Shown: piece by piece, positions 1-26,690 of the stretch
How the letters are laid out: each line of letters starts with the position of its first letter
Position numbering within the stretch: the first letter of the stretch is position 1
Assembly: GCA_052390235.1 (NCBI GenBank)
Contig: JBQTHB010000002.1
Coordinates: 300,543 to 364,542 of the forward strand
Source of the DNA: Deltaproteobacteria bacterium
Lineage (GTDB): Bacteria; Desulfobacterota_D; UBA1144; Nemesobacterales; CSP1-2
Reading direction: 5' to 3'
DNA length: 64,000 nt
Translations under genes and position numbers: made by a program
Notes under the pieces: model-generated
Told to the model about the DNA's origin: nothing
The model's input: only the letters and a program-made list of their open reading frames with translations
The model's database searches: none

Positions 1-3000
1 GAACCAACGGTTACAAATATAAGACCCGTCGAAGGTTCATGTTTCAATCCCTTATAGGTAGGCTAAGAACATTTAAAACTGCTCTTATTGCCGGGAAAAG
101 AGCCCGGGTTTCAATCCCTTATAGGTAGGCTAAGAACGCGGACAAAGGGAGAGAAAAAACTCCTCCCGTTTAGCGTTTCAATCCCTTATAGGTAGGCTAA
201 GAACTACGACCCCTTCGTAACCTCTTACCCTCCCAACCCCGAGTTTCAATCCCTTATAGGTAGGCTAAGAACTTTCTTTCTCCCTATACTCCGTGGTAAG
301 AATATAGGGTTTCAATCCCTTATAGGTAGGCTAAGAACCCCGGGTGGTTTACTTTTATGCGGATTATTTTTACAGTTTCAATCCCTTATAGGTAGGCTAA
401 GAACTGTTTCTCTCCACATTCGATACACCCTTGCGGTTAATGTTTCAATCCCTTATAGGTAGGCTAAGAACGACGTCTAGGGGTGTATGTAGATGGGGGT
501 TTATAACAGTTTCAATCCCTTATAGGTAGGCTAAGAACTTGTGCAAATTTGCACAAGTTGTGTTGTACTGCTCCGTTTCAATCCCTTATAGGTAGGCTAA
601 GAACCGTAGGTTATCCGTTTGGGTCGGGGGCATCGCGGAAGGTTTCAATCCCTTATAGGTAGGCTAAGAACTAAAAATCTTCCGCCCCTCCGGGAGGGGC
701 GTTGGTGGTTTCAATCCCTTATAGGTAGGCTAAGAACAATTAAAAAAATGGCTAGCTTTAGAGACCCGGGTCTCGTTTCAATCCCTTATAGGTAGGCTAA
801 GAACCAGATTATCCACCTCCCCCAAAGGGGGGAATGAATCGTTTCAATCCCTTATAGGTAGGCTAAGAACAAAATCCCAACAATGCGAGCGGGAGCGCTG
901 CCTCCCGGTTTCAATCCCTTATAGGTAGGCTAAGAACTAGTGATTATTTCCGAGTGGGACAAGGAGGTTCCGCCGTTTCAATCCCTTATAGGTAGGCTAA
1001 GAACAGGATAAAGAAAAATTTGGGGCTGACCCCACCCCGGGTTTCAATCCCTTATAGGTAGGCTAAGAACAAGGAGGTGTCAATGTTTACAAAAAAAGAT
1101 TTTTACCGTTTCAATCCCTTATAGGTAGGCTAAGAACGGTATTTCCCGCCGTACAGGTACAGTCGCACCACGGCGTTTCAATCCCTTATAGGTAGGCTAA
1201 GAACTTTCTCTAGCATCACGACATCTCCTCACTATTCTTTTGTTTCAATCCCTTATAGGTAGGCTAAGAACGAAAACATCGAACGGTGTAGGCGTATCCC
1301 CGTTCTGAGTTTCAATCCCTTATAGGTAGGCTAAGAACAGACTTCGATACCATCAATTCTGCACCCGATGTTATGTTTCAATCCCTTATAGGTAGGCTAA
1401 GAACTCCAAGATTACACCACCACCTATAGCAACCCCCGCTTGTTTCAATCCCTTATAGGTAGGCTAAGAACTATCAGACAGCCTCCGCTCCGAAGGATGG
1501 CTTCTGGAGTTTCAATCCCTTATAGGTAGGCTAAGAACGTACCGGCAAGGTTTCCGTGCTTGTTTGAGGAGTTCAAAGTTTCAATCCCTTATAGGTAGGC
1601 TAAGAACCTCCCTTGTCGAGGTTAGAGGGTTATTAGCCGAGGGGTTTCAATCCCTTATAGGTAGGCTAAGAACCCATAATTCCATCAGACACCTCAAATA
1701 TCTTTTTCGTGTTTCAATCCCTTATAGGTAGGCTAAGAACTCTTGGATAAGGTACAGCCTAGCTTTGCGAACGCAGTTTCAATCCCTTATAGGTAGGCTA
1801 AGAACTATATCTCTTTCTTCATTTTAGGATTTTCCATATTAGTTTCAATCCCTTATAGGTAGGCTAAGAACTGGTGAGCTATGATAGCGAGCGCAAGAGA
1901 TTCTATCGTTTCAATCCCTTATAGGTAGGCTAAGAACTTCCTCATTTATTTATCTCCTTTGTTTTTGTTATCTGTTTCAATCCCTTATAGGTAGGCTAAG
2001 AACACAGACGTCATACGAATAAACATCTATTTGGCTTTTGTTTCAATCCCTTATAGGTAGGCTAAGAACAAGCGAGAATCTCCTTTCGCTCCGCAGACAG
2101 CCTTGGTTTCAATCCCTTATAGGTAGGCTAAGAACCTGACAAGAAGAAGAAGAAGGGGGTGAAGTAATGAGTTTCAATCCCTTATAGGTAGGCTAAGAAC
2201 CCCGGCAACGAGTGCCATTTTAAATTCTGCCTCCGGTTTCAATCCCTTATAGGTAGGCTAAGAACTCTTGGCTAGTCTGGCTCAGTCCGACCCTTCTCTC
2301 ACGTTTCAATCCCTTATAGGTAGGCTAAGAACGCTTATTGCCCGTCGGATAACTCGCGCCAGTGAAAACGTTTCAATCCCTTATAGGTAGGCTAAGAACT
2401 ATTAGAGCATCGTTTTTGTATAGTATCGAGAGGTTCGGTTTCAATCCCTTATAGGTAGGCTAAGAACGGGATAGAGAGAAAGAAATAAGAGTTCGCAAGC
2501 CGAGTTTCAATCCCTTATAGGTAGGCTAAGAACGAGAGGTGTAGGCAGGTTATTTCGTGCATCTCTGCGAAGTTTCAATCCCTTATAGGTAGGCTAAGAA
2601 CGAGCCAGGCACGGCGGGGCAAGCGGGCGGGCGGTGGTTTCAATCCCTTATAGGTAGGCTAAGAACGCGCGCCCCGCTCGCTCCGCACTTTCGGTTGCTC
2701 CGGCGTTTCAATCCCTTATAGGTAGGCTAAGAACTAGGCTTATGTTCCTTAGCCGATTTGTACTTACCATGTTTCAATCCCTTATAGGTAGGCTAAGAAC
2801 GAACACGGCGGTAACGCTAGATGCCGGCAATACAGATATGTTTCAATCCCTTATAGGTAGGCTAAGAACTGGTGAGCTACGATACCGAGCGCAAGAGATT
2901 CTATAGTTTCAATCCCTTATAGGTAGGCTAAGAACAATTGAACCACAAATCAACTATCAGGCTGATATATTCGTTTCAATCCCTTATAGGTAGGCTAAGA

Positions 3001-4803
3001 ACCGACGCCCTGAGAAAACGGCTTTATATACGTATCCTTGTTTCAATCCCTTATAGGTAGGCTAAGAACTTGTTTGCGTTGTCGTATTCTGTACCGAGGG
3101 AACAGTTTCAATCCCTTATAGGTAGGCTAAGAACGCGGTCTAGCCACTGAGTCCGAGATTGCCTCGTTGTTGTTTCAATCCCTTATAGGTAGGCTAAGAA
3201 CGCAAGAGGGTAGGGAGATGATGATTTCCGTTGCCAGTTTCAATCCCTTATAGGTAGGCTAAGAACTTCGGAGAGGAGCTTAGAATCTGGGGTATGTTCC
3301 GGTGTTTCAATCCCTTATAGGTAGGCTAAGAACCCCCCCGCTCGCGCGCTCCTACTTCCTTCTTATTTGTTTCAATCCCTTATAGGTAGGCTAAGAACGT
3401 TGAAGGCTTGGCAGGAGTTTGTCGAAAAGAATAGGTTTCAATCCCTTATAGGTAGGCTAAGAACGGGAGGATGCAAAAACGACTGGAGTCTAACAACTTC
3501 CGTTTCAATCCCTTATAGGTAGGCTAAGAACCTATCGAAGAATTTCAAAAGTATATCCAAGAGGGAAAGTTTCAATCCCTTATAGGTAGGCTAAGAACGG
3601 GAGGGGGAGGGCGGAGTCGGCTTCATCTTCGGCGGTTTCAATCCCTTATAGGTAGGCTAAGAACGGTTTGAGCAAGGAGCTATGAAAGCCGTTCGGAACG
3701 GTTTCAATCCCTTATAGGTAGGCTAAGAACGCACTAGGGAAAGACATAGCTAGGCGCAAAGAAGCGAGTTTCAATCCCTTATAGGTAGGCTAAGAACTCG
3801 TATTCTGTACCGAGGGAACACAATAAGGCACAATAGTTTCAATCCCTTATAGGTAGGCTAAGAACAAGCCCTTTGGGAGTAATGTAATCATCGGGGATTC
3901 TGGTTTCAATCCCTTATAGGTAGGCTAAGAACTGAATATAGTTGACGGGCAATCGTACGCGGCGGTAAAGTTTCAATCCCTTATAGGTAGGCTAAGAACG
4001 AGATAAGAACTGTACGTCCGTCTGGCACATGGAAAGTTTCAATCCCTTATAGGTAGGCTAAGAACAGGGCTAGAGGCTCAGTTTATCCCTTTTGAGCTAC
4101 CGTTTCAATCCCTTATAGGTAGGCTAAGAACGCGTTGTGAATAGGCGAAATCGCGGAACAGGAGAGAAGTTTCAATCCCTTATAGGTAGGCTAAGAACAT
4201 GTATTCTCTGCCTGCGTCTTCGTCTGAAGATGAGGTTTCAATCCCTTATAGGTAGGCTAAGAACGCAGATATCCTTTATGCCCGTGAAATCGGAGATACG
4301 GGTTTCAATCCCTTATAGGTAGGCTAAGAACATGAGTAACCCTGAGAAGATAGAGAAGAATTTACGCCCGTTTCAATCCCTTATAGGTAGGCTAAGAACG
4401 ATGCTATCTCCAAACTAGAAATCACCGGAGAAGCAGTTTCAATCCCTTATAGGTAGGCTAAGAACATGAAGAGTCAAAAGCAGTCAAATCAAAGCGCCTC
4501 ACACGGTTTCAATCCCTTATAGGTAGGCTAAGAACTCGGAGATACGGTGAAAGTTTTACGCGGATGGAGCTAGTTTCAATCCCTTATAGGTAGGCTAAGA
4601 ACATTTCTCTTCGGATTTGGTGTTCGTTTTCCATTATGTGTTTCAATCCCTTATAGGTAGGCTAAGAACGCGTTTAAGGTTTCTTCTTGTGCTAGTACAC
4701 TGCGAAGTTTCAATCCCTTATAGGTAGGCTAAGAACTTTCAACGATGAGCTATTCCTACAAACCAAAGCCTAGGTTTCAATCCCTTATAGGTAGGCTAAG
4801 AAC
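1..4803 (-). CRISPR. CRISPR array, 72 complete 30-bp repeats (GTTTCAATCCCTTATAGGTAGGCTAAGAAC on the + strand) plus the last 4 nt of a further repeat at 1-4; spacers 35-38 bp; continues beyond the left window edge
   Basis: Exact repeat every 65-68 bp, counted from 41 to 4774. Bases 1-4 (GAAC) match the repeat 3' end and are followed by a 36-nt spacer. The leader and cas2 lie at the right end, so the crRNA strand is minus. The minus-strand repeat ends ...ATTGAAAC, typical of type I-B. Confidence 0.97.
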
Positions 4804-4973
4804 CCATTTCTCCCCAATAAATTCAGCATTTTCGATTATCAAAGAACAATATCTAAACTTAAACCTCTTATTTAACATTCTATGAAAACTCCCTGAAATT
4901 TCAACATTTTCCCTAAGTTTGCCTCTTCCGTCTATCCTCCGGTGTTTTTACGCTATTGGGGGTGGACGGAAAA
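4804..4973 (-). promoter_or_regulatory. CRISPR leader (AT-rich, between cas2 and the first repeat)
   Basis: 170 bp AT-rich non-coding sequence directly between the cas2 stop and the leader-proximal perfect repeat. Confidence 0.6.
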
Positions 4974-5237
4974 TCAGATGAATCTCTCTTCGCCTCCTTT
5001 TTTCACCCCTATGAGTAGCCGGTCGGTGTATTTGGTCGTCCTAAATGTGTAGAATATCAGAGAGTCGTAATCTTTGTCAATTATGGCTGTTAGCTCGTAT
5101 CTGAGCTTCTCGAATTGCGCCTCAGTGAGTTCGCCTTCGAGCACGGAATTCTGCACCCAATACAGATATTTGCGGGCGGTTTTCAGCACCTTGGCGACTC
5201 TCTTTTGCCCAACGTCATAGACTAGGATGATGTTCAT
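4974..5237 (-). CDS. cas2: CRISPR-associated endoribonuclease Cas2
   Basis: 87 aa; N-terminal MNIILVYDV...; sits between cas1 and the leader. Confidence 0.9.
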   Translation of the reverse strand: MNIILVYDVGQKRVAKVLKTARKYLYWVQNSVLEGELTEAQFEKLRYELTAIIDKDYDSLIFYTFRTTKYTDRLLIGVKKGGEERFI

Positions 5238-5274
5238 AATTCATGATACATGATGTATCGCGCATCTCGGCAAA

Positions 5275-6276
5275 TCACCACTCCCACAGAAACGGCGTAT
5301 ATTCCTCCTCCCCCATGAGGTGCTTTTCCAATTTATATAGCTCAAGCCTTATGAGCCGTCTATTCGACACGGGCTTCCCAATTTTCTTATGAGTGATGGT
5401 TGTCTCAAGCCTCTCCTCAAACTCCCTGGAAAATATCTTTGCGCCGTCTTCATTCATGACCACGCCGTCCATTTTTTTCTCGAAATGGTTTTTCTGGAGT
5501 TGCCCCTTGTTGACGAGCGAGAATATCATCCTATCAACGAAAATGGGTTTGAACACCTCCGCCACATCCAAATTGAGCGTGAATCGCCTGAAATTCGTCG
5601 TGTGAAGAAACCCGATGCGCGGGTCTAGGTGGGTTTTATAGATTTCGCTCAGCACAGTTGTGTAGAGTAGGGAGTTGCCGAAGCTGATGAGGGCGTTTAG
5701 GCGGTTTTTAGGCGGGCGGCGGGTGCGGGATTCAAATTTGAAATCGCCATCTTCAATAATCCCATCGAATGTGGAGTAATAAGCCTCTCGGATGTTCCCT
5801 TCAATCGCCATGAGGGAGTCTGTCGCCTCCTGCTTCGGGATGCTCTCGGAAAGGGCTGAGATGTAATCCGAGGTTTTGCCGATGTCCGCGCTCTCTTTCC
5901 TTCGGGCGTAGTAGTCAATGACTTTACGGATGTTGCCGACTGCGCCTTCGATGAATTTGCGGGCTATGGCGATTCTGGCTTTGGGGTCGTTGTAGTAGGT
6001 TGCCTGCTTCAGCGTCATGTAGCCTGAGTTTAGGTGTTCGCGCGGGTAGAAACTGCCGATGTAGTATTGATAGTGGTTGAAGAAGTGGAGGGTTATCTCT
6101 TTTTGCGATGCGAATTCCAGAAACCGCTTATTCAGCGTAACCTCGCCAAATATCATGAGCTCCTGCGTTCCCTCGACGGGGATAAATTTCTTCTCGCCCC
6201 GCTCGTTCTCGAAATAAATTGTGTTGTCCTTGCGCTTAAGCTCGCCGTCGCTGAAGATGAATATGCGTGTTTTCAT
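5275..6276 (-). CDS. cas1: CRISPR-associated integrase Cas1
   Basis: 333 aa with a Cas1-like sequence; adjacent to cas2 and cas4. Confidence 0.9.
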   Translation of the reverse strand: MKTRIFIFSDGELKRKDNTIYFENERGEKKFIPVEGTQELMIFGEVTLNKRFLEFASQKEITLHFFNHYQYYIGSFYPREHLNSGYMTLKQATYYNDPKARIAIARKFIEGAVGNIRKVIDYYARRKESADIGKTSDYISALSESIPKQEATDSLMAIEGNIREAYYSTFDGIIEDGDFKFESRTRRPPKNRLNALISFGNSLLYTTVLSEIYKTHLDPRIGFLHTTNFRRFTLNLDVAEVFKPIFVDRMIFSLVNKGQLQKNHFEKKMDGVVMNEDGAKIFSREFEERLETTITHKKIGKPVSNRRLIRLELYKLEKHLMGEEEYTPFLWEW

Positions 6277-6369
6277 CTTTTTCTAGGTTCTAGAGTGGTT
6301 TTCACACTAGTTTAATCCTTATGAAGCTGTCATGCCCGAAGTAGTAATTGGGCATCCATGTCTTCAACT

Positions 6370-6475
6370 ACTAGATTCCCGGCTTAAAAACTGCGGGAAT
6401 GACAACCTCTTGCATCTTGCCCAGGATACCGGAGTTTCTGTCCGGTCTCTGGATACTGCGGGAATGACATCCCGC
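6370..6475. repeat. MITE-like palindromic element copies (ATTCCC-N8-GGGAAT core, ...GGGAATGACA end) between cas1 and cas4
   Basis: ctagattcccggcttaaaaactgcgggaatgacaa and ctgcgggaatgacat; same family as 9445-9715, 10495-10570 and the others listed below. Confidence 0.8.
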
Positions 6476-6494
6476 ATCCTCCGTGCGTTACGCT

Positions 6495-7004
6495 TTAACT
6501 CCAGCAAAACTCCCGATATCCGCAGTTTGTGCAGTAGCCAATCTTTACCGCTTTTGGCGGAAGCTCCTGTGCGGCGATTCTCTTGATTTCATCAATTGCC
6601 CCCTCAAGCTCCGCAACCAACGCCTCGGTGAGCGAGACCTTCTCCTTCCTCTTCTCCTTCGGAAAAAGAAGCTCCCCTTCAGCCTCGATGCCGTAATCCC
6701 GCAGAACGTACAGATAGTAGGCAAGCTGCATCCTTGCCGCCTCTATCGCTTTTGAGCTTTTCTTAATCTCGCCGACCACGACTTTATCCTCATCGAGCCG
6801 CGTGAGGTCAATCACAACATTTTCGAGATGAATCTGCTTTTTATCTCTCTGATACGTGTTTTCGTTTATAAACCTCCCAAGCTCTATAAATGCATTGTCC
6901 TGATCCGGCACGATGTTCCTCGTCATAAGCCAAAGCTCTCGGCGGCAGATGTAGTAGCAGTCAATGAGAGTACCGTTCACTTTAAATTCGCTCTCGGCTA
7001 CCAA
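6495..7004 (-). CDS. cas4: Cas4 (RecB-like nuclease with Fe-S cysteines)
   Basis: 169 aa; N-terminal Cys and C-terminal CTNCGYREFC cluster; located between cas3 and cas1. Confidence 0.85.
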   Translation of the reverse strand: MVAESEFKVNGTLIDCYYICRRELWLMTRNIVPDQDNAFIELGRFINENTYQRDKKQIHLENVVIDLTRLDEDKVVVGEIKKSSKAIEAARMQLAYYLYVLRDYGIEAEGELLFPKEKRKEKVSLTEALVAELEGAIDEIKRIAAQELPPKAVKIGYCTNCGYREFCWS

Positions 7005-9427
7005 ATTGCCACGCCTCCTTTTAATTTATATCCGGTCTCAAAGTCGTAATACTCATCAATCTGGGAGCTTGAGACGAACGGCATTCCTTCGTCTATGGCA
7101 GGCAGGTTCACCCCCCCTCGCTTCGGCACGGAAACCGAATATTCATAAAACTTTGCCTTTATTTTATCAAACTTCTCTCTTCTCTCGAACGGATTTTGTG
7201 TTTCTCTTATATCTAAAAACTTTTCCCAAATATTTATTGCCTCATTATCAAACTGGATGAAAATATCTACTTTCTCGTAATCCTCTTCAATCAATCTAAA
7301 AGTCCATATACCGTTATCTCCATCGTAGTTCAGCCTGTAGAAGGCTTTGAGAATGTCTCTGGATTTCTGGTCGGATTTTGCCTCGGCAATAAGTTTATAG
7401 TATTCATCAATAAGGTTTAAAAACTCGCTTTCACCGATTTCCTCTCTACCGGAAAGCACTTTTCGGGTTCTGTCCAAAAGTATCGAGTCTTTGTTGTAAA
7501 TGTAGGTTGAGTATTCTCTTCCGGTTTTTCCATCTCTGAGCCTTATGACTCTTATCTCCCTGCCTGCCGATAGTCCGTTTCTGTTACATCTCCCCGCAGA
7601 CTGATTGATCGAATCAAGCGGGCAGAAGTCTCGATAAACAACGTCGAAGTCAATATCCACTCCCGCCTCGACAAGCTGAGTAGTAACGGCGATCCTCTTT
7701 TTCCTTTCTCTGATTTCGTCAATCCTCCTGAGTCTTTCTTTTGGAATCACGTGAGTTGAAAGGTATGTCATCTCTTCTCGCTTTAATCCACTTTCTCTGA
7801 GAAGGCTGTAAAATTCCTTTGCCGAGCCGATTGTGTTGAAGATGAAAAGAAATCTCTTGTCGCCCTTCAGAGCTTCAGTGATTACCGAACCTGCAAATTC
7901 TCTGATGGTTCTGGATTCGGCTATATCAGGCTTCAGAATTACTCTGTGCAAGCTACTAAAATATTTCTCTCTCTCGACAAGTGAAACTGTTTCTCCTCGT
8001 TTGAAAATCAGCGGCTCAGTTGCGGTTACAAATATGAAATATGTGCTGAATTTCTCAGCCATGAAGCGGATTATATCGCGCATGAGAAGCCAGTATTTAT
8101 GAGGGATTGCCTGAATCTCATCCAAGATTACGATGCTTCCCGCGATACGGTGAAACTTCCTTATGCTGCGGTTTTTATTGGAAATCAGCGTATGGAAAAG
8201 CTGTATGAACGTCGTAACGACAATCTCGGAGTTCCAGCCCTCAATCATAATATTCGAGGCGTCGAACTCAAAATCCTCATAATCAGTTTTCCAATGGTAA
8301 TTTACATCCGCCAGATGGTGGTGCTTGAGCAGAACCGGGCTCAGTGGCTCAATATCACTTGCCTTGAGCGCGTCCTCAAAAACTTTACAATTCTGGTCAA
8401 TTACGCTTAGGAATGGCAGAGAATAAATTATGCGAGAACTGTTGCTTCTGTCTTTCTGCATCTTCTCTCTTAGCTTCAGCGCAAAGGCAAGCGAGGTAAG
8501 GGTTTTCCCAAGACCTGTGGGAAGGTTTATTGAGTAAATCTTCTCATCAAGATTTATCTCACGGCTCAGAACTTCTTGAAACGCTTGTTCCCGAAGCTCG
8601 TCAATGTCTTTCTTTTCCCAATTCTGCTTCTGTTTATAACAGCTCACAATTTCATGGCTGAGATTAATTTTGCTCCCGAAGTTTGCTATTTCTTCTCTAT
8701 CTTTTTCTGATACGGCTACTTCATTTTTATCGGCGTCTAGCAAGAGGGAGTAAATAAGGTGAATCAGAAAGTAGTAATCGTAGCTCTCTTTCCCATACAT
8801 CGCCTCATATTCGTCTAGCATTTCGTAGCTTGCGTCTTTTATTTTCTTGAATCTCTCGCAGAGCCATTCATAAGAGAAAGGGCTGCCAAGCTTTTCAAGT
8901 AAGACGTTGAACTTTTGCTTATCGATACTTTCAAGCTGTTCCTGAAGGAGAGAAATATCACTGTCTTGAAACTCTATCTCACAGTTATATACATCCCCAA
9001 GGTTGCCGTGATGACGTTTGCACACCAGAAACGAGGCAATCGGAACAAATCTAAAAAGACCGTCGTATTTACCCTCTCTTTGCAGAAGTTCTTTTGTGAG
9101 GAAGTAAGCTATTACCGAGCCAAAAAGGGCGTGAGAGCTCTTTCTGCTTTTCAGCTTTTCCCTCTCTTCGCGAGTTTTCGCCGTAATATATTGCTGAAAA
9201 TAAGATGTAGCCTTTCCCAGATCGTGGGATGTCGTTATGATTTTTGCTACTTTCCTGAGCGTTTCTTTGTCAATAATACCAGCGGGATTATTTTCCAGAG
9301 AAAGCAGGGCGAGGTCGGTTACGGCTTGGGTGTGGTTTTCTAGGAATTTGCCCGGATGAGAAAATAATCCGGATTCTGTATTAATGCTTTCAACAATAAA
9401 GTTATTGGATTGGTTCTCATTTGCCAT
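6998..9427 (-). CDS. cas3: Cas3 HD-nuclease/helicase
   Basis: 809 aa; N-terminal HD motif (TTSHDLGK); helicase motifs (GLGKT, VILDEIQ). Confidence 0.9.
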   Translation of the reverse strand: MANENQSNNFIVESINTESGLFSHPGKFLENHTQAVTDLALLSLENNPAGIIDKETLRKVAKIITTSHDLGKATSYFQQYITAKTREEREKLKSRKSSHALFGSVIAYFLTKELLQREGKYDGLFRFVPIASFLVCKRHHGNLGDVYNCEIEFQDSDISLLQEQLESIDKQKFNVLLEKLGSPFSYEWLCERFKKIKDASYEMLDEYEAMYGKESYDYYFLIHLIYSLLLDADKNEVAVSEKDREEIANFGSKINLSHEIVSCYKQKQNWEKKDIDELREQAFQEVLSREINLDEKIYSINLPTGLGKTLTSLAFALKLREKMQKDRSNSSRIIYSLPFLSVIDQNCKVFEDALKASDIEPLSPVLLKHHHLADVNYHWKTDYEDFEFDASNIMIEGWNSEIVVTTFIQLFHTLISNKNRSIRKFHRIAGSIVILDEIQAIPHKYWLLMRDIIRFMAEKFSTYFIFVTATEPLIFKRGETVSLVEREKYFSSLHRVILKPDIAESRTIREFAGSVITEALKGDKRFLFIFNTIGSAKEFYSLLRESGLKREEMTYLSTHVIPKERLRRIDEIRERKKRIAVTTQLVEAGVDIDFDVVYRDFCPLDSINQSAGRCNRNGLSAGREIRVIRLRDGKTGREYSTYIYNKDSILLDRTRKVLSGREEIGESEFLNLIDEYYKLIAEAKSDQKSRDILKAFYRLNYDGDNGIWTFRLIEEDYEKVDIFIQFDNEAINIWEKFLDIRETQNPFERREKFDKIKAKFYEYSVSVPKRGGVNLPAIDEGMPFVSSSQIDEYYDFETGYKLKGGVAIW

Positions 9428-9444
9428 GCTGAATCTTCACCTCA

Positions 9445-9715
9445 TTCCATGAGCGGAGAAGCCATCATTCCCATGCAAACGGGAATCCGGCATTTAAAAT
9501 CACTAGATTCCCACTTTCGTGGGAATGACAACTACTGCTCTATTGTTTGCCTCTTTGTCATTCCCGCAGTCTTTTGAGCGGGAATCCAGCAGTTCTGAAT
9601 ACTGGATTATCAATTTCGTGGTAATAACGCCTAGATAGTTTGTCATTCTCGAACGCTTTATCGAGAATTCAGCAGTTCTCAAATACTAGATTCCCGTTTT
9701 CACGGGAATGACAAC
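9445..9715. repeat. Cluster of about 3 MITE-like palindromic elements between cas3 and cas5
   Basis: tagattcccactttcgtgggaatgaca; gtcattcccgcagtcttttgagcgggaatcc; gattcccgttttcacgggaatgaca. Confidence 0.85.
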
Positions 9716-9736
9716 ATAGCCAATTACCGAACCACT

Positions 9737-10462
9737 TTAGAGGAACATGATTCTTTCTCCATTTTCTATTTCCCAAAATCGCTGTGGAATAACAACAAAG
9801 GATTTTCCTTCAGCTTCGTACATCACCTCTCCGTATTCTGTAACCACTCTGTCTGTTGTCATCTCCATCGGTATTTTCTCTTTAAAATACTTTTTCCCCG
9901 GCTCAAATTTTATGCTGTCTTTCTTCTTTATAAGCCCCGAAAGAGGCACGACTGAACCAATCTCCGCTTCGGTTTCCATTTTTTCTAAAATGCCGAACTC
10001 TCCGACGTAGGAGAAATTGCATAACAACTCGCTCAAGCCTAAGCAGGGCGTATAAACCGATTTATGCCGGCTCAGATTATCTCTCAGACTTTCATAAAGC
10101 CATTGGTCGGTGTGAGAAATGTATATTCTAAACTTTGGATATTTTAAAAATTCGGTTCTAATTTGGGTTCTAGGTTCATGACCGCTCTTTTTAATCAGAG
10201 TCCAGCAGTTCCCCTTAGTGTTGATGAGGTTTATGCCGATTCTAGTCTTTTTCACAGGGTTTAAAAGCCTGATTCCTATGCTCGCATCCTTTTTAGAGAA
10301 ATGTTTAAGATATTCGTCTTTGCCTAATCCGATGATAGCCGCAAGAAGCCCTGTAACCGAAGTTCTAGGAGGAATCGAGAACGTAAGCGGCGAAGAGGTC
10401 GTGTAGAATTTCCTGAAATGTGCATAATCTCCCCACACATCAAATACAAGAACTTTGTCCAT
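9737..10462 (-). CDS. cas5: Cas5 (type I-B RAMP)
   Basis: 241 aa; N-terminal VFDVWGDYAHFR...; position between cas7 and cas3. Confidence 0.85.
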   Translation of the reverse strand: MDKVLVFDVWGDYAHFRKFYTTSSPLTFSIPPRTSVTGLLAAIIGLGKDEYLKHFSKKDASIGIRLLNPVKKTRIGINLINTKGNCWTLIKKSGHEPRTQIRTEFLKYPKFRIYISHTDQWLYESLRDNLSRHKSVYTPCLGLSELLCNFSYVGEFGILEKMETEAEIGSVVPLSGLIKKKDSIKFEPGKKYFKEKIPMEMTTDRVVTEYGEVMYEAEGKSFVVIPQRFWEIENGERIMFL

Positions 10463-10494
10463 TGTGAGCCTCTTTCTTTGTTTGTTTTTTTGTT

Positions 10495-10570
10495 TTGTTA
10501 TTCCCGAATATTTCTATCGGGAATCCAGTATTTAAAACTATGTGGATTCCCACTTTCGTGGGAATGACAA
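10495..10570. repeat. MITE-like palindromic element (TGTTATTCCCGAA...TCGGGAATCC + GGATTCCCACTTTCGTGGGAATGACA)
   Basis: Two-hairpin unit with TGTCATTCCC/GGGAATGACA-type ends. Confidence 0.85.
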
Positions 10571-10576
10571 GTTAAA

Positions 10577-10867
10577 TTATCTCGTCAACTCATCATACAA
10601 ATCCTTCCAATCAGGATTCACATTCTCAATAAGTTCGATTTTCCATTTCCGGTTCCATTTCTTCAGCCTTTTTTCTCTCTCAATGGCGCTATGTACATCG
10701 TTTGTTTGCTCATAATAAACCAAATCATGTACGCAGTATTTTTCGGTGAATCCCCTAGCTATGTTGCTTTTGTGTTCATAGACTCTCTTGAGCAAGTTAT
10801 TTGTAACGCCAATATAGAGCGTGCCGTTCTTTTTACTAGCCATAATATAAACGTAGTAAATATTCAT
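10577..10867 (-). CDS. GIY-YIG nuclease family protein (small UPF0213/COG2827-like) inserted inside the cas operon
   Basis: 96 aa; YVYIMAS...LYIGVT...RVYEHK...EREKRLKKW matches the GIY-YIG motif set. Confidence 0.8.
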   Translation of the reverse strand: MNIYYVYIMASKKNGTLYIGVTNNLLKRVYEHKSNIARGFTEKYCVHDLVYYEQTNDVHSAIEREKRLKKWNRKWKIELIENVNPDWKDLYDELTR

Positions 10868-10920
10868 ATATGCCCGCTAGTTATTAATTCACACCCTCGA
10901 CGAAAGATAACCCCTCGACC

Positions 10921-11215
10921 ATTGTCATTCCCGAACGTTTCTATCGGGAATCCACTTATTATTTAAATACTGGATTTCCACTTTAGTGGGAATGACGCCT
11001 ACATGGTTTGTCATTCTCGAACGCTCCCAGTCCAATACTTTCGGGGACAGTCCTTACCGAGAATCCATCAGTTCTGAAATACCGGATTCCCACTTTCGTG
11101 GTAATGATGCCTGTATGATTTGTCATTCTCGCAGTCTTTTGAGCGGGAATCCACTCATTCCTTCAATACTGGATTCCCGTTTTCACGGGAATGACAGACT
11201 AAAGATTGGAAATGG
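10921..11215. repeat. Three tandem MITE-like palindromic elements between the GIY-YIG gene and cas7
   Basis: ttgtcattcccgaacg...; tttgtcattctcgaacg...ggattcccactttcgtggtaatga; tttgtcattctcgcagtcttttgagcgggaatcc...ggattcccgttttcacgggaatgaca. Confidence 0.85.
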
Positions 11216-11238
11216 CATCTCACAATGACATATCGGAA

Positions 11239-12201
11239 TCACACCTTCATTTCTTGAACTGTAATCCCGTTAAATAACTCCGTGATAGGTCTCGGCGTAA
11301 TCTGAACCCTACCGTCCACTTTGTACTCCACTCTCTCTATCTTCTCTTTGTGCGTGGAAAGGGCCTTGGCAAGCTCTGTAAGGTCAAGTGAGACCTCTGA
11401 AATATCTCTTATCGCCTCGTCCTGCTTTTCTCCTTTCTCAAGTCGTACCATCTTATCCAAATCCCCAATGTGGAAATTCCCTTCTTTATAAACCACCCTG
11501 AGAAGCAACCTCGGCATCTGCCCAGCCTTCGAGCGTGAGATGAGGTTTTTCGTGCCATTCCATATCCCATCCATAAGAAGCGACATATCGCCTTCCGTAA
11601 GCCTCGTCTCTTTCGCTGCATTCTCATTGGCAACGCCCCAAAAGGCGATTAGCGAATAAGACAGGAAGTACTCTTCTCGGAATGATTTTTGCCCTTTTCC
11701 TTCTACTGCGAATGCAGCCGTACCTTTTATATACTGAAGATTTACCCTATGGAGAGAAGCGCCCATTTTAAATTGGACAGGCCCGGTATGAGTTATTGAA
11801 TCTTTGTCTAGTGGAAGTGTTGTGCCGAAGAGTCGTATATCAATACACTCTTTTAAAACATTCTCATTTATGATTTTCTTCATCTCAACTGCGCTGACAC
11901 TTCCTTTCTTCATTCTGCTTCCCGCCGAATCGGTAAAGAAGTGTTTGGCTCTCTGCTTCGCATCCTGCAATGTTCCCTTTTCTTCATCTGCAAATATTTC
12001 CCTTACAAATATTTCCTTCCCCTTAAAATCCTTCAGATAATCTCTGACAGTCCGCTTGAGTCTCACATCCGTTACGAAGTTCTTTCCGGTCTCTTCGTCA
12101 ATTCTCGGTTTGTTCTCGTCAACCGGGTCGCCGTTCGGGTTAGCGTTGCTTACGTCGTAGAGAAATAAAATCTCCGAGCGGTTTTTTATGATTTCACTCA
12201 T
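11239..12201 (-). CDS. cas7: Cas7 (type I-B, Csh2/DevR family)
   Basis: 320 aa; YDVSNANPNGDP...TGKNFVTDVRLKRTVRDY is a classic Cas7 motif. Confidence 0.9.
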   Translation of the reverse strand: MSEIIKNRSEILFLYDVSNANPNGDPVDENKPRIDEETGKNFVTDVRLKRTVRDYLKDFKGKEIFVREIFADEEKGTLQDAKQRAKHFFTDSAGSRMKKGSVSAVEMKKIINENVLKECIDIRLFGTTLPLDKDSITHTGPVQFKMGASLHRVNLQYIKGTAAFAVEGKGQKSFREEYFLSYSLIAFWGVANENAAKETRLTEGDMSLLMDGIWNGTKNLISRSKAGQMPRLLLRVVYKEGNFHIGDLDKMVRLEKGEKQDEAIRDISEVSLDLTELAKALSTHKEKIERVEYKVDGRVQITPRPITELFNGITVQEMKV

Positions 12202-13961
12202 TGCTTTCCCTCCTCCATGGTTTCTTTTTTCTCATAAACGATATTTGTTATCTCTTTAGCCAGATTCATCCCGCAGGCGAAGTAGAAATTTATTTCGTCA
12301 TTGGAGAGCTTCCATCCGTTACCGGCTTCGAGCAGGTAAAAAGAGACGGCTTCGGCAATCGCTCTTTTTCCTTTATCGAAGGATTTATACTCTTCCAGCT
12401 TGTTCTGCACCTTTGGGAGCAGTCCTTTGATTTCTTTCTCGCTCAGTTTAAGCCCCTGAAGCTGTTTTATGAACGGTTTGGACTTTTTGTCCTCATACTG
12501 CGTCCAGAAAAGCAGTTCGGTTAAAGCTCCTAAAAGGAAAATCCCTCTCGCCGCAGGTGTTGTGAAAGACTTTCCATACTTCTCGAAAAACGGAGAAAAA
12601 CTTTCTGTACTCATTGCGACCTCCTCGAATTTGATAAGACCTAGCTTTTCAAAAAAGAGCATGTCCAGTACTGCATCTCTTACGTCGAAAAAGAATTTGC
12701 CTCCTGTTTCTATATCTAAAAAATCTCTCCTTATTTTGTTCATCATAACCTGGAGAATGAAATGAAAATCGAGATTTCCTCCTTTGAAGGTTTTATCCAC
12801 TATTTCAAGGAAATATTTATCAAGGTCATTGCTCTTCTTCCCCTCATCCGACTTCTGAAAAAACTGCCTTATTCTCCTGAAGTTGAACTCAAATTTTTCG
12901 CCGAAAATCTTATCAACCTCGTCTTTCTTCTCCATTATCGTTCTGAGCCTTGAAGGAAGCACGTCTTCAACCAACAGGAGTATTCTCTCCACGCCGCCAG
13001 ATTGCTCTCTGCTTAGGAAGAAAAAGTTAAACGTCAGATAGTCGTTTTCTTGAGACAGCGTTCTCCAAATTCTGTTCTCTCTTACTACTATCTCCTTCTT
13101 GTCTGTGAGGCTTTGCTCATGTTTATTTATCATTTCAAAAATTCGGAATATTCTCTCTCTCAGTTCATCGCCGCCGAACATAAATTTAGGGACAATATAG
13201 TAACGCAGCCCGTAGAAGCTAAATCCGAGATTTGCCAAAACGAACTTCTTCCCTTCCTCAAGGCTCTGCTTGCACTCTCCGCAAACCGGATAATTCTTCC
13301 AAGCCTCTTCTTTCCTAAACCCGCCGCTTATAAATCCTGGCTTGTCATTCGTATAAAACTTGAAAATATCAACTACAAATACTGCATCTTTTGTCTTACT
13401 ACATAGCGAGCAGAGCTTGTCCTTGCTTGTTAATCTTGCATCTCTTTTAGCTGCGGCTTGAACTAGATAGCTTTGAAACGCCTCAAAGTCGCCAATATAT
13501 TTCTCATCGTCTCCGTCTTTTACCTTCACAGTTAACATCGCTTTTTTCTGTGTTTCATAACTTTTGACAGCATTTGCTATATTTTCTATATCGCTGATAA
13601 ATGCGGTTTTTAAATTTGTGAGAAACGCTTTGCCGTCTTCGCCAATTTGAAAGGGAGACAAATCCATCTTCTCAAACCATCCCTGAATTTTCCTAGGAAA
13701 AGTCTTGTCAAACTCCTTTAGCATAGCTGCAGGTGTGAAATTTACTCCATTTTTAGAGCCTGTTCTGTAGAGATACTTATTTACTTTCCCCAGATCGAAC
13801 TCCTCTAGCTTTACTTCTAAGAACTTAAAACCTTCCTCATGCTTTTCAAAAACTATGGCAATTACATTTTCAGCATTCGGTTTCTCAATAAGTGTGCTGA
13901 GAAGAGTTTTATTTCCCCTCTTTAAAATCGTGTCTCCCAGTTCTTTGACTGCTTGTATCAT
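12198..13961 (-). CDS. cas8b: Cas8b large subunit (type I-B)
   Basis: 587 aa large protein immediately upstream of cas7 with a 4-nt overlap; position and size fit Cas8b. Confidence 0.75.
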   Translation of the reverse strand: MIQAVKELGDTILKRGNKTLLSTLIEKPNAENVIAIVFEKHEEGFKFLEVKLEEFDLGKVNKYLYRTGSKNGVNFTPAAMLKEFDKTFPRKIQGWFEKMDLSPFQIGEDGKAFLTNLKTAFISDIENIANAVKSYETQKKAMLTVKVKDGDDEKYIGDFEAFQSYLVQAAAKRDARLTSKDKLCSLCSKTKDAVFVVDIFKFYTNDKPGFISGGFRKEEAWKNYPVCGECKQSLEEGKKFVLANLGFSFYGLRYYIVPKFMFGGDELRERIFRIFEMINKHEQSLTDKKEIVVRENRIWRTLSQENDYLTFNFFFLSREQSGGVERILLLVEDVLPSRLRTIMEKKDEVDKIFGEKFEFNFRRIRQFFQKSDEGKKSNDLDKYFLEIVDKTFKGGNLDFHFILQVMMNKIRRDFLDIETGGKFFFDVRDAVLDMLFFEKLGLIKFEEVAMSTESFSPFFEKYGKSFTTPAARGIFLLGALTELLFWTQYEDKKSKPFIKQLQGLKLSEKEIKGLLPKVQNKLEEYKSFDKGKRAIAEAVSFYLLEAGNGWKLSNDEINFYFACGMNLAKEITNIVYEKKETMEEGKQ

Positions 13962-13990
13962 AGGTTAGTCCTCATCTTTGTTGTCTAAAA

Positions 13991-14175
13991 GTGTCATTCC
14001 CAAATTTATTTATCGGGAATCTCATACTTTAGAACTGCCGGATTCCCACTTTCGTGGGAATGACACCCACACAATTTGTCATTTGCATGATTTGTCATTC
14101 CCGCAGTCCTTTGAGCGGGAATCCAGTGGTTGAAAAAACATGGATGCCCGATTGCTGCTTCAGGTATGACAAAAC
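13991..14175. repeat. MITE-like palindromic element cluster between cas6 and cas8b
   Basis: gtgtcattcccaaatttatttatcgggaatc; ggattcccactttcgtgggaatgaca; tttgtcattcccgcagtcctttgagcgggaatcc. Confidence 0.85.
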
Positions 14176-14197
14176 GCAAACATCGTATCTTTGGTTA

Positions 14198-14944
14198 TCA
14201 ATCCCCTCTCCCCACCACCTCAAAGCAGCCGAACCCCTGGGAGTTCTTGCCTCCCAGCCCCGCGTCATAGGCGAGCTTTATGAGTTCCCTATCTCCGCCG
14301 AGTTCATAAATCCCCATCCAGCCCTTGATGACGGTATCTCTGTAGAACATTATCTTCTCGTTCGAGTTATTCACCTTCACCGGCAGGAGCGATAACCCCC
14401 CTTCCGGCTCCCTCTCGTAGAAAGCCCTGAATTTCTTCTTGGCATTCTCGCCGATGAGTTCTGCAAATTCCCTCTCAAATGGGGTGTAGTAATAGGTTTT
14501 CTTTTTCCCATCTGCCCTGGACAGGGTGCTGTAGATAGTGGCTGGCGAGAGCATCTTGATTATGAGCTTGTCTGCCTCTACGGCGAAATCCGACATCTCT
14601 ACTGCCGCGAGCCGGAGCGTTTGCGAGTGGATTCTCCCCCGCTCCCCTCTGAGGAGTTCCTCGCCGAGTTCCTCAATAAATTCTCTCATCGGAGAGCTTA
14701 CAACGAGCCTGAACGGAGAGGCAAAGGTTATTGTCTCCTTCGATTTGTTAATTTCATATTCGCCGAGTATGCGAGAGAACGTAAAGAGCCGAAATGTTCG
14801 ACCCTGCGCGGAAAACCCCCTCGTGTGGAGCATGTCGGCGAGCTTCTGTGAGATGGAGCGATAGATAAAAGCCTGAACGTAGTGGCTGTGGTGAATGGGA
14901 AGGCTGAAGCCCGTGTCCGATGCGAATTCTAGGGTTAATCTCAT
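14198..14944 (-). CDS. cas6: Cas6 crRNA endoribonuclease
   Basis: 248 aa; C-terminal glycine-rich loop GLGGKNSQGFGCFEV; first gene of the I-B operon. Confidence 0.85.
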   Translation of the reverse strand: MRLTLEFASDTGFSLPIHHSHYVQAFIYRSISQKLADMLHTRGFSAQGRTFRLFTFSRILGEYEINKSKETITFASPFRLVVSSPMREFIEELGEELLRGERGRIHSQTLRLAAVEMSDFAVEADKLIIKMLSPATIYSTLSRADGKKKTYYYTPFEREFAELIGENAKKKFRAFYEREPEGGLSLLPVKVNNSNEKIMFYRDTVIKGWMGIYELGGDRELIKLAYDAGLGGKNSQGFGCFEVVGRGD

Positions 14945-16233: not shown

Positions 16234-16866
16234 TTATGCTTGAATTTTTTCGATATAAATCTGGTTGTCTCTGACAAATGCCTTCTCAGGATATTCGGGG
16301 GTCTGCATATCGTCCGGGGGGCGCGTAAAACACCCGGCGATTCTAAGTTGCTGGGGTTTTAGCTTCAGCGCCATTATGACGGCCGTCTCGTCGCCCCTAG
16401 CCCCTGCGTGGACGACGCCTCTGAGGATTCCCATCACCACGATATTGCCAGAAGCGATGATATAGGCGTCGGGATTTACATCTCCGATGACCAGAACGTC
16501 TCCGTCATGCTCGATTCTCTGGCCGCTGCGCATGGTTTTATTGACGATGTGGGCGGCTTTTTTCTCGGTAACGTCGGGAAGGGATTTGCCTCTGGTGTCC
16601 TTCTCGCGGGCTGTGTCGGCGCGCACTGACTCTGAGGTTTTATAACCGAGGAAATTCGTGCCGCTTTTGCGCAGAGCCTCCTCGATATTACTCTTATCAG
16701 CCTCGGCTAGGGGAATCTCGTTGGTGTCAACGGCAACCGCCGAGTTCTTGAAAAACGCGGCGGCGAGTTTTTCGTTCATCTCGGCGATGTTGGCGTCAAT
16801 TGTCTTGGTTTTATCGAGCTTTATCAGAAGCGCAGGCACGGTGATGCCCTTGACGATGATTCCCAT
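16234..16866 (-). CDS. minC: Septum formation inhibitor MinC
   Basis: 210 aa; C-terminal beta-helix-like repeats; located upstream of minD. Confidence 0.8.
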   Translation of the reverse strand: MGIIVKGITVPALLIKLDKTKTIDANIAEMNEKLAAAFFKNSAVAVDTNEIPLAEADKSNIEEALRKSGTNFLGYKTSESVRADTAREKDTRGKSLPDVTEKKAAHIVNKTMRSGQRIEHDGDVLVIGDVNPDAYIIASGNIVVMGILRGVVHAGARGDETAVIMALKLKPQQLRIAGCFTRPPDDMQTPEYPEKAFVRDNQIYIEKIQA

Positions 16867-17009
16867 TTCGGCTTATGTCCCGCAACGCTTATAAAAGGAT
16901 ATAAATGTTTATCACATCTTCGGGGTTAAAACAAGAAATCCGCGCAGGATTTTTGAAAAACTCAAACGGCGTGATATAATCTCCGGGATTTTGATTTATC
17001 CATCCCGTT

Positions 17010-17081
17010 GCCGACGTAGCTCAGCGGTAGAGCAGCGCACTCGTAATGCGCAGGTCTGGGGTTCAAATCCCCACGTCGGCT
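17010..17081 (+). tRNA. tRNA-Thr (anticodon CGT)
   Basis: gccgacgtagctcagcggtagagcagcgcactCGTaatgcgcaggtctggggttcaaatccccacgtcggct; 7-bp acceptor stem; cloverleaf; CCA not encoded. Confidence 0.85.
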
Positions 17082-17204
17082 AATATCTGCTCGAAAATGC
17101 CAGCCAATTGCAATCTATCTAAAATAAGCCGCAAACCCTCAGGGCTAGGCTCTCTATACTCCGGATACTCCGGCGGAACTACCCACCCTTTGACATAGTT
17201 TATA

Positions 17205-17350
17205 GCGAGCGGAGTCGAACTACTCAGGGTGAAGGGAAGCGGCAGAAATATTATCTCCATCTCTCTTTGACTCACCTTACGCGCTAATGCCGCTAGTTGT
17301 GTAAAAAGCGCTGTCATTTCCGCAGAATTAAGCGGGAATCCAGTATTTGC
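17205..17350. repeat. Composite repeat: family-B element (gagcggagtcgaactactcagggtgaag) plus a MITE-like fragment (gtcatttccgcagaattaagcgggaatcc)
   Basis: Shares its sequence with 42295-42330 and 9560-9590. Confidence 0.7.
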
Positions 17351-23439: not shown

Positions 23440-23830
23440 AATGGTTCGACTCCGCTCACTATCAAGAGGAGAAAACCAACAAAACCCTCCTTCATCCTCA
23501 GCGGAGTCGAAGGGTGAGTAGCTGGGCTAATATCACTATAAACTACGTCGAATGCGGGGGTAGTTCGGGCGGGGTTTATCCTGAGCTTGTCTAAGGGTGA
23601 GGGGAGTCATCGGGCGGTGAATACTGGATTCCCGCTCAGTTCTGCGGGAATGACAGCGACTTTTACATAACTAGCGGCATTAGCGCGTAACGTGAGCGCG
23701 GGAGAGATAGAGATAATATTTCCGCCGCTTCCCTTCACCCTGAGCGGAGTCGAAGGATGAGTAGCTGGGCTAATATCACTATAAAATATGTCGAATGCGG
23801 GGGCGTACATCAATTGCGCCGCTCCTCCAT
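23440..23830. repeat. Repeat cluster: two about 95%-identical copies of a ~60-bp element (cctgagcggagtcgaagg(g/a)tgagtagctgggctaatatcactataaa) plus a MITE-like element
   Basis: 23488-23545 and 23742-23800 are near-identical. Inverted pair ttcgactccgctca (23449) / tgagcggagtcgaa (23492). ggattcccgctcagttctgcgggaatgaca at 23619-23650. Confidence 0.8.
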
Positions 23831-26472: not shown

Positions 26473-26509
26473 TTGCGGCAACTGTGGAATCCCCCACTCC
26501 CGCTCCCTT

Positions 26510-26690
26510 TGACTCTGCTCAGGATGAAGATGGAATGGATTCCCGCTCTGAGGACTGCGGGAATGACAAACAGGCTCACTACCATTCCAAGCCTCATTCT
26601 TGTCGTTTCGAGCGATAGCGAGAAATCCTGAATTAGATTCCTCATTCCTGTCATTCTCACGAAAGTGGGAATCCATAGTTTCGACTCCTC
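26510..26690. repeat. Composite repeat (family-B head, MITE-like ggattcccgctctgaggactgcgggaatgacaaa, tgtcattctcacgaaagtgggaatcc)
   Basis: Near-identical to 42300-42480. Confidence 0.8.

Follow-up and report, generated by a model that had tools for sequence, protein, structure and literature searches.

The repeat family considered here has been known since the description of dRS3 (~25 years ago) and of the CGTC repetitive extragenic palindromes (REPs) in 2013, but its partner enzyme only since 2025. That partner belongs to the Ssn family of single-domain GIY-YIG proteins, to which the 94-aa SsnA of Neisseria meningitidis (CDD cd10448) belongs (PMC11893778). Here we describe a 64 kb window of DNA, the whole stretch that was analysed, which is part of a contig of at least 573 kb from an uncultured deltaproteobacterial metagenome-assembled genome (MAG) and carries an ssnA homologue together with ten two-hairpin repeats inside a type I-B cas operon. 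We consider it probable that these repeats are hairpin pairs of the Ssn-related motif (SRM) type which, with their cognate ssnA, were inserted into the operon and spread there locally, and regard this as the best overall explanation of the locus.

The binding and cleavage of single-stranded DNA (ssDNA) by Ssn are taken from the literature (Chenal et al., PMC11893778). The enzyme binds the hairpin repeat NTS, CGTCATTCCCGCGMAVGCGGGAATCYRG, only as ssDNA and only in one orientation; its cut falls a few nucleotides to the 5′ side of the hairpin, and the reverse strand, double-stranded DNA, and RNA are not acted on. The GTC directly upstream and the C directly downstream of the palindrome matter for cutting and binding, and mutation of Y6, Y17, and E64 abolished cleavage by SsnA (PMC11893778). 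NTS is an oriented superset of dRS3 (ATTCCC-N8-GGGAAT), and 71% of the Ssn homologues, delimited by a tblastn E value below 1e-10 to N. meningitidis SsnA, have an SRM nearby (PMC11893778). In N. meningitidis, NTS cluster around particular genes, and an NTS-gene-NTS arrangement lowers transformation ~5-fold in an SsnA- and NTS-dependent manner; the NTS-ssnA-NTS layout was likened by the authors to an insertion sequence (IS), as a hypothesis only (PMC11893778).

The same hairpins have a longer record as the CGTC-1 REP family, which includes Neisseria dRS3 and Rickettsia RPE-6 (Di Nocera et al., 2013, PMC3733652). CGTC-1 repeats consist of a CGTC tag with TGTC variants, an 8-bp stem starting AT, a 4-nt loop (4–5 nt listed), and a CCA tail (PMC3733652). 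They mostly form HH dimers with the tags outside and conserved spacers, heterodimers among them, and lie downstream of open reading frames (ORFs; PMC3733652). Di Nocera et al. reported no dedicated transposase, and no RAYT flanked by CGTC repeats (PMC3733652).

Hairpin pairs in the gaps of the cas operon

An earlier note on this DNA had placed a two-hairpin palindromic element in the cas1/cas4, cas3/cas5, cas5/GIY-YIG, GIY-YIG/cas7, and cas8b/cas6 gaps, and all five are indeed occupied: by direct reading of the sequence, repeat finding, and a covariance model built from the copies, ten complete pairs and two fragments were located there. These are the five gaps longer than 100 bp. The further claim that every gap of the operon is filled holds for them but not for the 37-nt cas2/cas1 gap, which has no element, nor for cas4/cas3 and cas7/cas8b, which overlap. 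A unit length of ~90 bp had been proposed; the complete elements measure 68–101 bp, mostly 73–79 bp, and it is the start-to-start spacing within arrays that amounts to 84–112 bp. Tandem copies, two or three to a gap as described, form the arrays B1–B3, D1–D3, and E1–E2. The inventory is as follows.

6328–6404, minus strand: A1, hairpin pair in the cas1/cas4 gap, orientation opposite to E2 (60.6 bits)
6449–6469, plus strand: right-arm fragment CTGGATACTGCGGGAATGACA in the cas1/cas4 gap, from sequence reading and the GGGAATGACA search
9463–9530, minus strand: B1, cas3/cas5 gap (68.3 bits)
9556–9629, minus strand: B2, cas3/cas5 gap, with one degenerate arm (63.8 bits)
9641–9713, minus strand: B3, cas3/cas5 gap, whose short-loop hairpin TGTCATTCCCGTGAAAACGGGAATCTAG fits the published SRM pattern (77.6 bits)
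10496–10569, minus strand: C1, cas5/GIY-YIG gap, beginning 7 nt past the ssnA stop (85.9 bits)
10923–10997, minus strand: D1, GIY-YIG/cas7 gap, ending 55 nt upstream of the ssnA start (84 bits)
11009–11109, minus strand: D2, GIY-YIG/cas7 gap, with a 36-nt loop insertion in one hairpin (partial model match at 11031–11111)
11121–11196, minus strand: D3, ssnA/cas7 gap, whose short-loop hairpin fits the published SRM pattern (78.7 bits)
13992–14065, minus strand: E1, cas8b/cas6 gap, with hairpin TGTCATTCCCACGAAAGTGGGAATCCGG (87.2 bits)
14078–14084: fragment TGTCATT, cas8b/cas6 gap
14093–14171, plus strand: E2, cas8b/cas6 gap, inverted relative to A1 (64.3 bits; inverted repeats I1, I3)

The covariance model recovers all ten and, in the other ~50 kb, just one further pair (42457–42551). 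The arrays are not reported by Tandem Repeats Finder, because the copies are too diverged.

Each half of an element reads TGTC-ATTCCCNN-loop-NNGGGAAT-CCAG, where the ATTCCCNN arm gives an 8-bp stem starting AT, and the two halves are inverted around a related spacer of ~17–22 nt so that the TGTC tags lie outside (TGTC...GACA outer ends in 10/10). The ATTCCC-N8-GGGAAT core that the earlier note assigned to the element (8-bp stem, 4-nt loop) is present in one hairpin of each pair, with 10 matches at ≤1 mismatch versus 0.22 expected, but not in its partner, which has a loop of 9–10 nt. On the mRNA strand, the first hairpin usually carries a GAAA tetraloop and the second the 9–10 nt loop. The motif GGGAATGACA, also at ≤1 mismatch, is found 31 times versus 3.1 expected. 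Units within arrays are joined by a conserved linker of 11–14 nt. The copies are mosaic: the halves of B3 resemble D3 and D2, those of B2 resemble D2 and D3, and such relationships suggest recombination between copies. A1 is an inverted copy of E2 (I1, I3) and of the same subfamily; spread has therefore not been by tandem duplication only.

How closely do these hairpins follow the published motifs? The strict NTS consensus has no match in the window, and the published degenerate SRM pattern has two (the short-loop hairpins of B3 and D3). At ≤3 mismatches, NTS recovers four short-loop hairpins versus none in every shuffle, the mismatches including a compensated stem pair, and the E1 hairpin (14038–14065) is the gonococcal NTS copy CGTCATTCCCACGAAAGTGGGAATCCGG except for its first base. 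Hairpins composed of GTC, a stem with at least 7/8 pairs, and C number 14 in the cas gaps and 7 elsewhere, and across 76 aligned copies the GTC and C columns beside the palindrome do not vary. Tag, AT-first 8-bp stem, 4-nt loop, and CCA tail of CGTC-1 are all present in the short-loop hairpin of each pair. Judged by their sequence, the elements are probably head-to-head pairs of the known CGTC-1 REP, Neisseria dRS3/NTS, or SRM hairpin, the recognition site of Ssn, and hence of a known kind. With the CGTC-1 repeats they also share HH dimers, conserved spacers, heterodimers, and a site downstream of ORFs (PMC3733652); they differ in that a partner gene sits among the repeats and that one partner of the dimer has a loop longer than 4–5 nt. 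The Neisseria NIMEs, in which dRS3 flanks short RS segments, are likewise arrays of the 20-bp palindrome core, with shuffled segments of 50–150 bp between, and the gonococcal ssnA locus (L098) contains pairs with ~108-bp spacing under the covariance model built here. In contrast, the spacers in the window are short (~17–22 bp) and conserved, and the arrays have at most three units.

Inverted hairpin pairs with a conserved spacer are also the architecture of the REPINs mobilised by RAYT, an IS200/IS605-type Y1 transposase. REPIN/RAYT systems and the E. coli BIMEs further resemble the locus in their arrays of alternating hairpin types with short linkers and in occupying the gaps of operons, and they too are associated with a single-copy nuclease gene that bears the system's own hairpins on its flanks. 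Classical REPINs are nonetheless a highly improbable identity for these elements. The tag is TGTC or CGTC, not the GTAG of REPINs, no RAYT was found flanked by CGTC repeats (PMC3733652), and the gene flanked by these hairpins in 54/80 loci encodes the GIY-YIG enzyme SsnA, not an HUH Y1 transposase. Moreover, IS200/IS605 elements have both end hairpins on the same strand, whereas the ends here are inverted. Membership was thus rejected on tag and enzyme; no search was aimed at Y1 transposases in the window.

Hairpins were also sought with a generic finder (GTC, stem, and C, with loops ≤50 nt). Because its background is ~9 hits per 64 kb of simulated sequence, only hits starting GTCAT were counted as family members. 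About 22 half-units lie within the operon, versus 7 in the remaining ~50 kb. The recurrences proposed at 17310, 23619, 26530, and 42330 to 42620 do belong to the family, but as single hairpins (17313, 23627, 26538, 26650, 42337, 42460, and 42519), with only 42457–42551 a pair.

17313–17340, plus strand: single family hairpin, 232 nt downstream of tRNA-Thr
23627–23654, minus strand: single family hairpin, intergenic
26538–26567, minus strand, and 26650–26673, plus strand (26538–26673): two single hairpins with tags inward, in a mosaic repeat
42457–42551, plus strand: hairpin pair with a longer spacer, in a mosaic intergenic repeat, the sole pair outside the cas operon (53 bits)

These chromosomal hairpins are up to 94% identical to operon copies; the family is therefore common to the low-G+C cas island and the chromosome. 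The mosaic intergenic repeat measures ~180 bp and has copies 84–91% identical at 26508–26688, 42314–42497, and 42499–42606; it contains family hairpins, a second hairpin type, GTCATTCCGAGCGATAGCGAGAAATCC, and a GACTCCGCTCAGGGTGAAG motif, and a 43-nt piece of it recurs at 17192–17234.

Two further observations concern the copies themselves. Past the hairpin downstream of ssnA, four other loci (L015, L022, L062, and L091) carry two to four extra 3′-arm-only copies (GGGAATGACA) at ~20-nt spacing, with which the fragments at 6449–6469 and 14078–14084 of the window may be compared; such extra copies may be footprints of repeated cutting and repair. As a practical point, the repeats break short-read assemblies of the locus: those of the same organism (L001/L002, Logan SRR34758884; L003) end in or beside the repeat-filled gaps, one contig stopping just past cas5, at the edge of the cas5/cas3 gap.

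The ssnA homologue and its flanking hairpins

The GIY-YIG gene of the operon, which the earlier note had treated as a mere neighbour of the repeats, is by homology an ssnA gene, and likely encodes the cognate Ssn-type enzyme of the repeats, which appear to correspond to the published recognition motif. GIY-YIG is the sole strong Pfam domain of its 96-aa product, with a weak overlapping match to the related T5orf172 model. The protein is 53% identical over 89 residues to the 94-aa N. gonorrhoeae SsnA orthologue (BLASTP; tblastn E 4e-25), and its Y7, Y18, and E65 align with Y6, Y17, and E64 of that orthologue. The latter was taken from a gonococcal chromosome record in PLSDB (L098, NZ_CP119140.1), in which the gene is surrounded by NTS copies; this record and NZ_CP119142.1 are 2.17-Mb N. 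gonorrhoeae entries filed as plasmids, evidently chromosomes. For the 96-aa protein, NCBIfam has no specific model and a PDB sequence search returned no match to a solved structure. No second GIY-YIG copy was found by tblastn in the 64-kb window.

The locus resembles the published Ssn system (PMC11893778) in both partners: a single-domain GIY-YIG protein of ~95 aa with conserved catalytic residues, and an ATTCCC...GGGAAT palindrome with GTC upstream and C downstream, in repeats that flank the gene and cluster around genes. It differs in its host and in the placement of ssnA and ten pairs inside a type I-B cas operon, a context unmentioned in that paper. Other differences are that the pairs are mostly TGTC-tagged heterodimers and that half of the hairpins have 9–10 nt loops.

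The association of gene and hairpin extends well beyond the window. With the 96-aa protein as query, a scan of one genome per GTDB species returned at least 574 relatives, of which the best 80 were analysed. These are 61–77% identical to the query and come from more than ten phyla, with hosts among the Dadabacteria, Planctomycetota, Desulfobacterota, Verrucomicrobiota, Bacteroidota, Chloroflexota, Patescibacteria, Alpha-, Beta-, and Gammaproteobacteria, and others. A hairpin in the same orientation follows the ssnA stop within 60 nt in 57/80 loci and within 150 nt in 68/80, and an inverted hairpin precedes the start within 60 nt in 52/80 and within 150 nt in 64/80; 54 of the 80 have hairpins on both flanks, inverted to each other. 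At these positions, hairpins in the opposite orientations are three to ten times less frequent. The ssnA of the window is itself flanked on both sides, by D1 on the 5′ side (55 nt) and C1 on the 3′ side (7 nt), and pairs like those of the window flank ssnA in ~30 other loci, on both sides in L029.

Compensatory changes occur at 6/8 stem pairs across 38 cells, a value that none of 500 shuffles reaches; the requirement of at least 7/8 stem pairs in the finder raises the percentage paired, though it leaves the compensatory counts unaffected. Furthermore, the two ends of a given locus resemble each other more closely than they do the ends of other loci (0/10,000 permutations). Ssn identity of 61–77% spans Patescibacteria and Saccharibacteria, far above what vertical descent allows, and its persistence over more than ten phyla thus points to frequent horizontal transfer. 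No ssnA homologue was found in 50,697 phage records. In the plasmid collection it occurs in just 34 records, several of which are chromosomes or megaplasmids.

When the Cas proteins of the window were searched against the 80 ssnA loci (tblastn), there was no match, and none of these loci lies within 3 kb of a cas gene; there is therefore no general ssnA–cas linkage. This bears on a possible guarding role, whereby Ssn sites and a nuclease encoded within the operon would cut incoming homologous ssDNA and lower the replacement or deletion of the cas locus by transformation. The ~5-fold, SsnA- and NTS-dependent effect of NTS-gene-NTS in N. meningitidis, and the clustering of NTS at particular genes there (PMC11893778), offer a precedent; in the window, each pair would offer the enzyme one cleavable hairpin per strand, and ssnA is transcribed together with the cas genes. 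We nevertheless judge such a guard to be quite improbable, given that natural competence would have to be assumed for an uncultured deltaproteobacterial MAG, that none of the 80 other ssnA loci is near a cas gene, that the sister locus L004, described below, has one pair, and that the clustering is equally explained by local spread from a resident gene.

Related cas loci and the host operon

The history of the insertions can be read from related cas loci, which were found through Cas8b homologues of 55–70% identity and represent seven lineages. Four of these, seen across the whole operon (L008/L009, L092, L093, and L095), are compact, with junctions that range from overlapping to ≤42 bp, no GIY-YIG gene, and no element: cas6/cas8b is overlapping or 14 bp, cas7/cas5 is 8 bp, cas5/cas3 overlaps by 26 nt, and cas4/cas1 is 9 bp. 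Two more, seen at the cas6/cas8b junction only (L099 and L100/L101), are empty there, at 3 bp. The seventh (L004–L007) has 68% Cas8b identity and lies in other chromosomal surroundings. Its GIY-YIG gene occupies the position seen in the window (77% protein identity), and L004 has exactly one two-hairpin element, directly after the GIY-YIG stop in the position of C1, and none elsewhere.

Six related lineages thus lack elements at the junctions seen, and the copies in the cas gaps are therefore insertions rather than ancestral structure. The earlier note had called them MITE-like (miniature inverted-repeat transposable element) dispersed repeats, and was broadly right that they derive from insertion. 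The ends of a pair are the inverted hairpins that bracket ssnA in 54/80 loci, that is, ends common with an enzyme-encoding unit, and empty sites (overlapping or ≤~14 bp) exist in relatives at cas6/cas8b, cas7/cas5, cas5/cas3, and cas4/cas1. The comparison with related cas loci had also been proposed as the way to tell whether the elements are ancestral structured intergenic regions of the I-B subtype that are not mobile at all. The occupied C1 position in L004 speaks for that account, but the six other lineages have genes that overlap or nearly abut, and members of the family are also present beyond the operon and across more than ten phyla. We give ancestral structure next to no credence; it is refuted by the related loci.

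Since ssnA and one pair are common to the window locus and L004, they are ancestral to both, with C1 the oldest copy and the others lineage-specific. The insertion between cas5 and cas3 is especially legible. It lies directly after the cas5 stop, inside the ancestral start region of cas3; in relatives, cas3 starts 26 nt inside the end of cas5 (cf. L093 4694–4719; window 9427–9460 and 9737–9775). The ancestral cas3 ATG is still visible and now runs into a stop, and a new ATG at 9427, with a GAGGTGA ribosome-binding site, lies downstream of the three inserted elements and alters only the first ~17–23 residues of Cas3. Junctions in this clade of I-B operons seem to be favoured landing sites. In L004, the space between cas6 and cas8b (9466–10000) is taken up by three short ORFs of 68, 46, and 47 aa without a Pfam match, and that between cas4 and cas1 (16860–17166) by a 93-aa ORF that weakly matches ribbon-helix-helix proteins.

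The host operon has remained intact, every Cas protein aligning over its full length to relatives.

4974–14944, minus strand: host operon cas6-cas8b-cas7-ssnA-cas5-cas3-cas4-cas1-cas2, type I-B, cas genes all full length
41–4803: CRISPR array, 72 repeats
4974–5237, minus strand: cas2 (Pfam)
5275–6276, minus strand: cas1 (Pfam)
6495–7004, minus strand: cas4 (Pfam)
6998–9427, minus strand: cas3 (Pfam)
9737–10462, minus strand: cas5 (Pfam)
10577–10867, minus strand: ssnA homologue, the GIY-YIG gene (Pfam GIY-YIG, E 2.4e-16)
11239–12201, minus strand: cas7 (Pfam)
12198–13961, minus strand: cas8b (Pfam)
14198–14944, minus strand: cas6 (Pfam)

The cas region (4800–14944) has a G+C content of 40–45% versus 52–60% in the remaining window (14945–64000) and looks like a horizontally acquired island; it adjoins minE in the same orientation across a 17-nt gap, so that read-through from minCDE possibly occurs, and tRNA-Thr lies at 17010–17081. 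The array has spacers of 35–40 nt and a repeat 27/30 identical to that of L004. Comparison of the spacers with the remaining window and with every locus retrieved gave no match to ssnA or the repeats and one 20-nt hit at chance level. Across the whole window, Rfam at gathering thresholds reported CRISPR repeats and tRNAs only, with no match on the hairpin elements.

The operon appears to tolerate elements that would be transcribed as very stable RNA hairpins, and the genes downstream of them keep or have regained ribosome-binding sites. The RNA of the cas5/cas3 gap folds at −113.8 kcal/mol versus −77 ± 4.6 for shuffled sequence (z = −8), and single elements fold as two hairpins or one long hairpin, with z from −0.6 to −5.0 and seven of ten below −2.5. 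The terminator and promoter roles entertained by the earlier note were not supported: promoter-like consensus sites number 19 versus 15.4 ± 4.0 expected and terminator-like sites 11 versus 11.2 ± 3.7, neither enriched, and just one hairpin (B3, 9690–9709) has a weak T-rich tail. Given this lack of enrichment, the reading of the elements as canonical terminators or promoters was rejected.

A REP-like effect on mRNA stability is possible. REPs in operon gaps stabilise upstream mRNA segments, as at malE-malF of E. coli. By analogy, the pairs might have taken on a role as RNA elements, as REPs and BIMEs do, acting as 3′-exonuclease barriers or processing sites in the cas polycistron and setting different levels of Cas6, Cas8b–Cas7, Cas5, Cas3–Cas4, and Cas1–Cas2. 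Such a role would suit their location in transcribed gaps of a single-direction operon, the GAAA tetraloop that closes one hairpin of most pairs on the mRNA strand, and the strong RNA folds. We regard it as unlikely, although less so than a guard. The junctions seen in six related lineages carry no element, and hairpins of this type are present beside ssnA in many phyla as well as in unrelated intergenic DNA of the window. Neither terminator-like nor promoter-like sites are enriched, and Ssn is inactive on RNA (PMC11893778). Because sister operons lack the elements, effects on mRNA cannot be the reason for them, and any RNA effect would follow from the insertions rather than account for their presence.

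Proposed origin and spread

Insertion of an Ssn system followed by local spread, which we favour, would have proceeded in three steps. First, ssnA with a downstream hairpin pair would have entered the 8-bp cas7/cas5 junction in the common ancestor of the window locus and L004. Gene-less pairs would then have appeared, in the lineage of the window, at four further junctions that in relatives are overlapping or ≤~14 bp. Finally, local multiplication into arrays of two or three, with recombination among copies, would have produced the present arrangement. A pair can be seen as the ssnA unit minus its gene, as a MITE is to an IS or a REPIN to RAYT, and it has the layout of the two inverted hairpins that bracket most ssnA genes. 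Each of its strands would then present one hairpin in the cleavable orientation, at the outer 5′ edge. We infer that the Ssn of the window recognises the window copies, and that its nicking of DNA that is transiently single-stranded, with subsequent repair or copying, could drive local spread and rearrangement around the resident gene. Such spread would explain the presence of ten pairs in 1.25 kb of operon gaps versus one pair in the remaining ~50 kb.

Several points weigh against this account. The published activity of Ssn is ssDNA cleavage and its phenotype reduced transformation, not transposition, so that movement of DNA by Ssn goes beyond both. Inspection of the elements and junctions found no target-site duplication or consistent insertion target. 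Only 2 of the ~22 half-units fit the published SRM pattern and none the strict NTS, and half of the hairpins, with loops of 9–10 nt, exceed the published loop range and cannot match a short-loop pattern. The ssnA of the window is flanked by whole pairs, so "unit minus gene" is an analogy with no traced deletion behind it. In L004, the gene appears frameshifted over its last ~10 codons (13037–13069), with the C-terminal match in another frame, and ssnA may thus be decaying there rather than maintained everywhere. Lastly, the window shows 64 kb of the genome, and other ssnA copies or other enzymes could lie elsewhere.

A stronger form of local spread holds that ssnA with its inverted hairpins is a self-mobilising element and that the gene-less pairs are its MITE-like derivatives. 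We put this forward tentatively, as a doubtful but serious candidate. If true, it would mean that a GIY-YIG nuclease acting on single strands can drive a transposition-like process, which has so far been demonstrated for no element, and the cas operon and its relatives would form a dated series from empty site, through gene and one pair, to ten pairs at five junctions. A variant, in which the cas-embedded nuclease and site array were co-opted to protect or modulate the CRISPR locus, is less likely.

The locus adds a further case to a system described only recently; the element itself is of a known kind. What is new is the evidence of insertion and the unusual host site, an intact cas operon; the understanding of CRISPR or of Ssn is unchanged. 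Its value lies in a clean comparative series of compact empty operons, a sister with ssnA and one pair, and the window with ten pairs, which have pushed formerly overlapping genes apart without breaking them. The series provides direct sequence evidence that both ssnA and gene-less pairs insert at new places, which was only a hypothesis in the 2025 paper, and indicates that ~1 kb of such DNA can be accommodated by a CRISPR-Cas operon that still looks functional.

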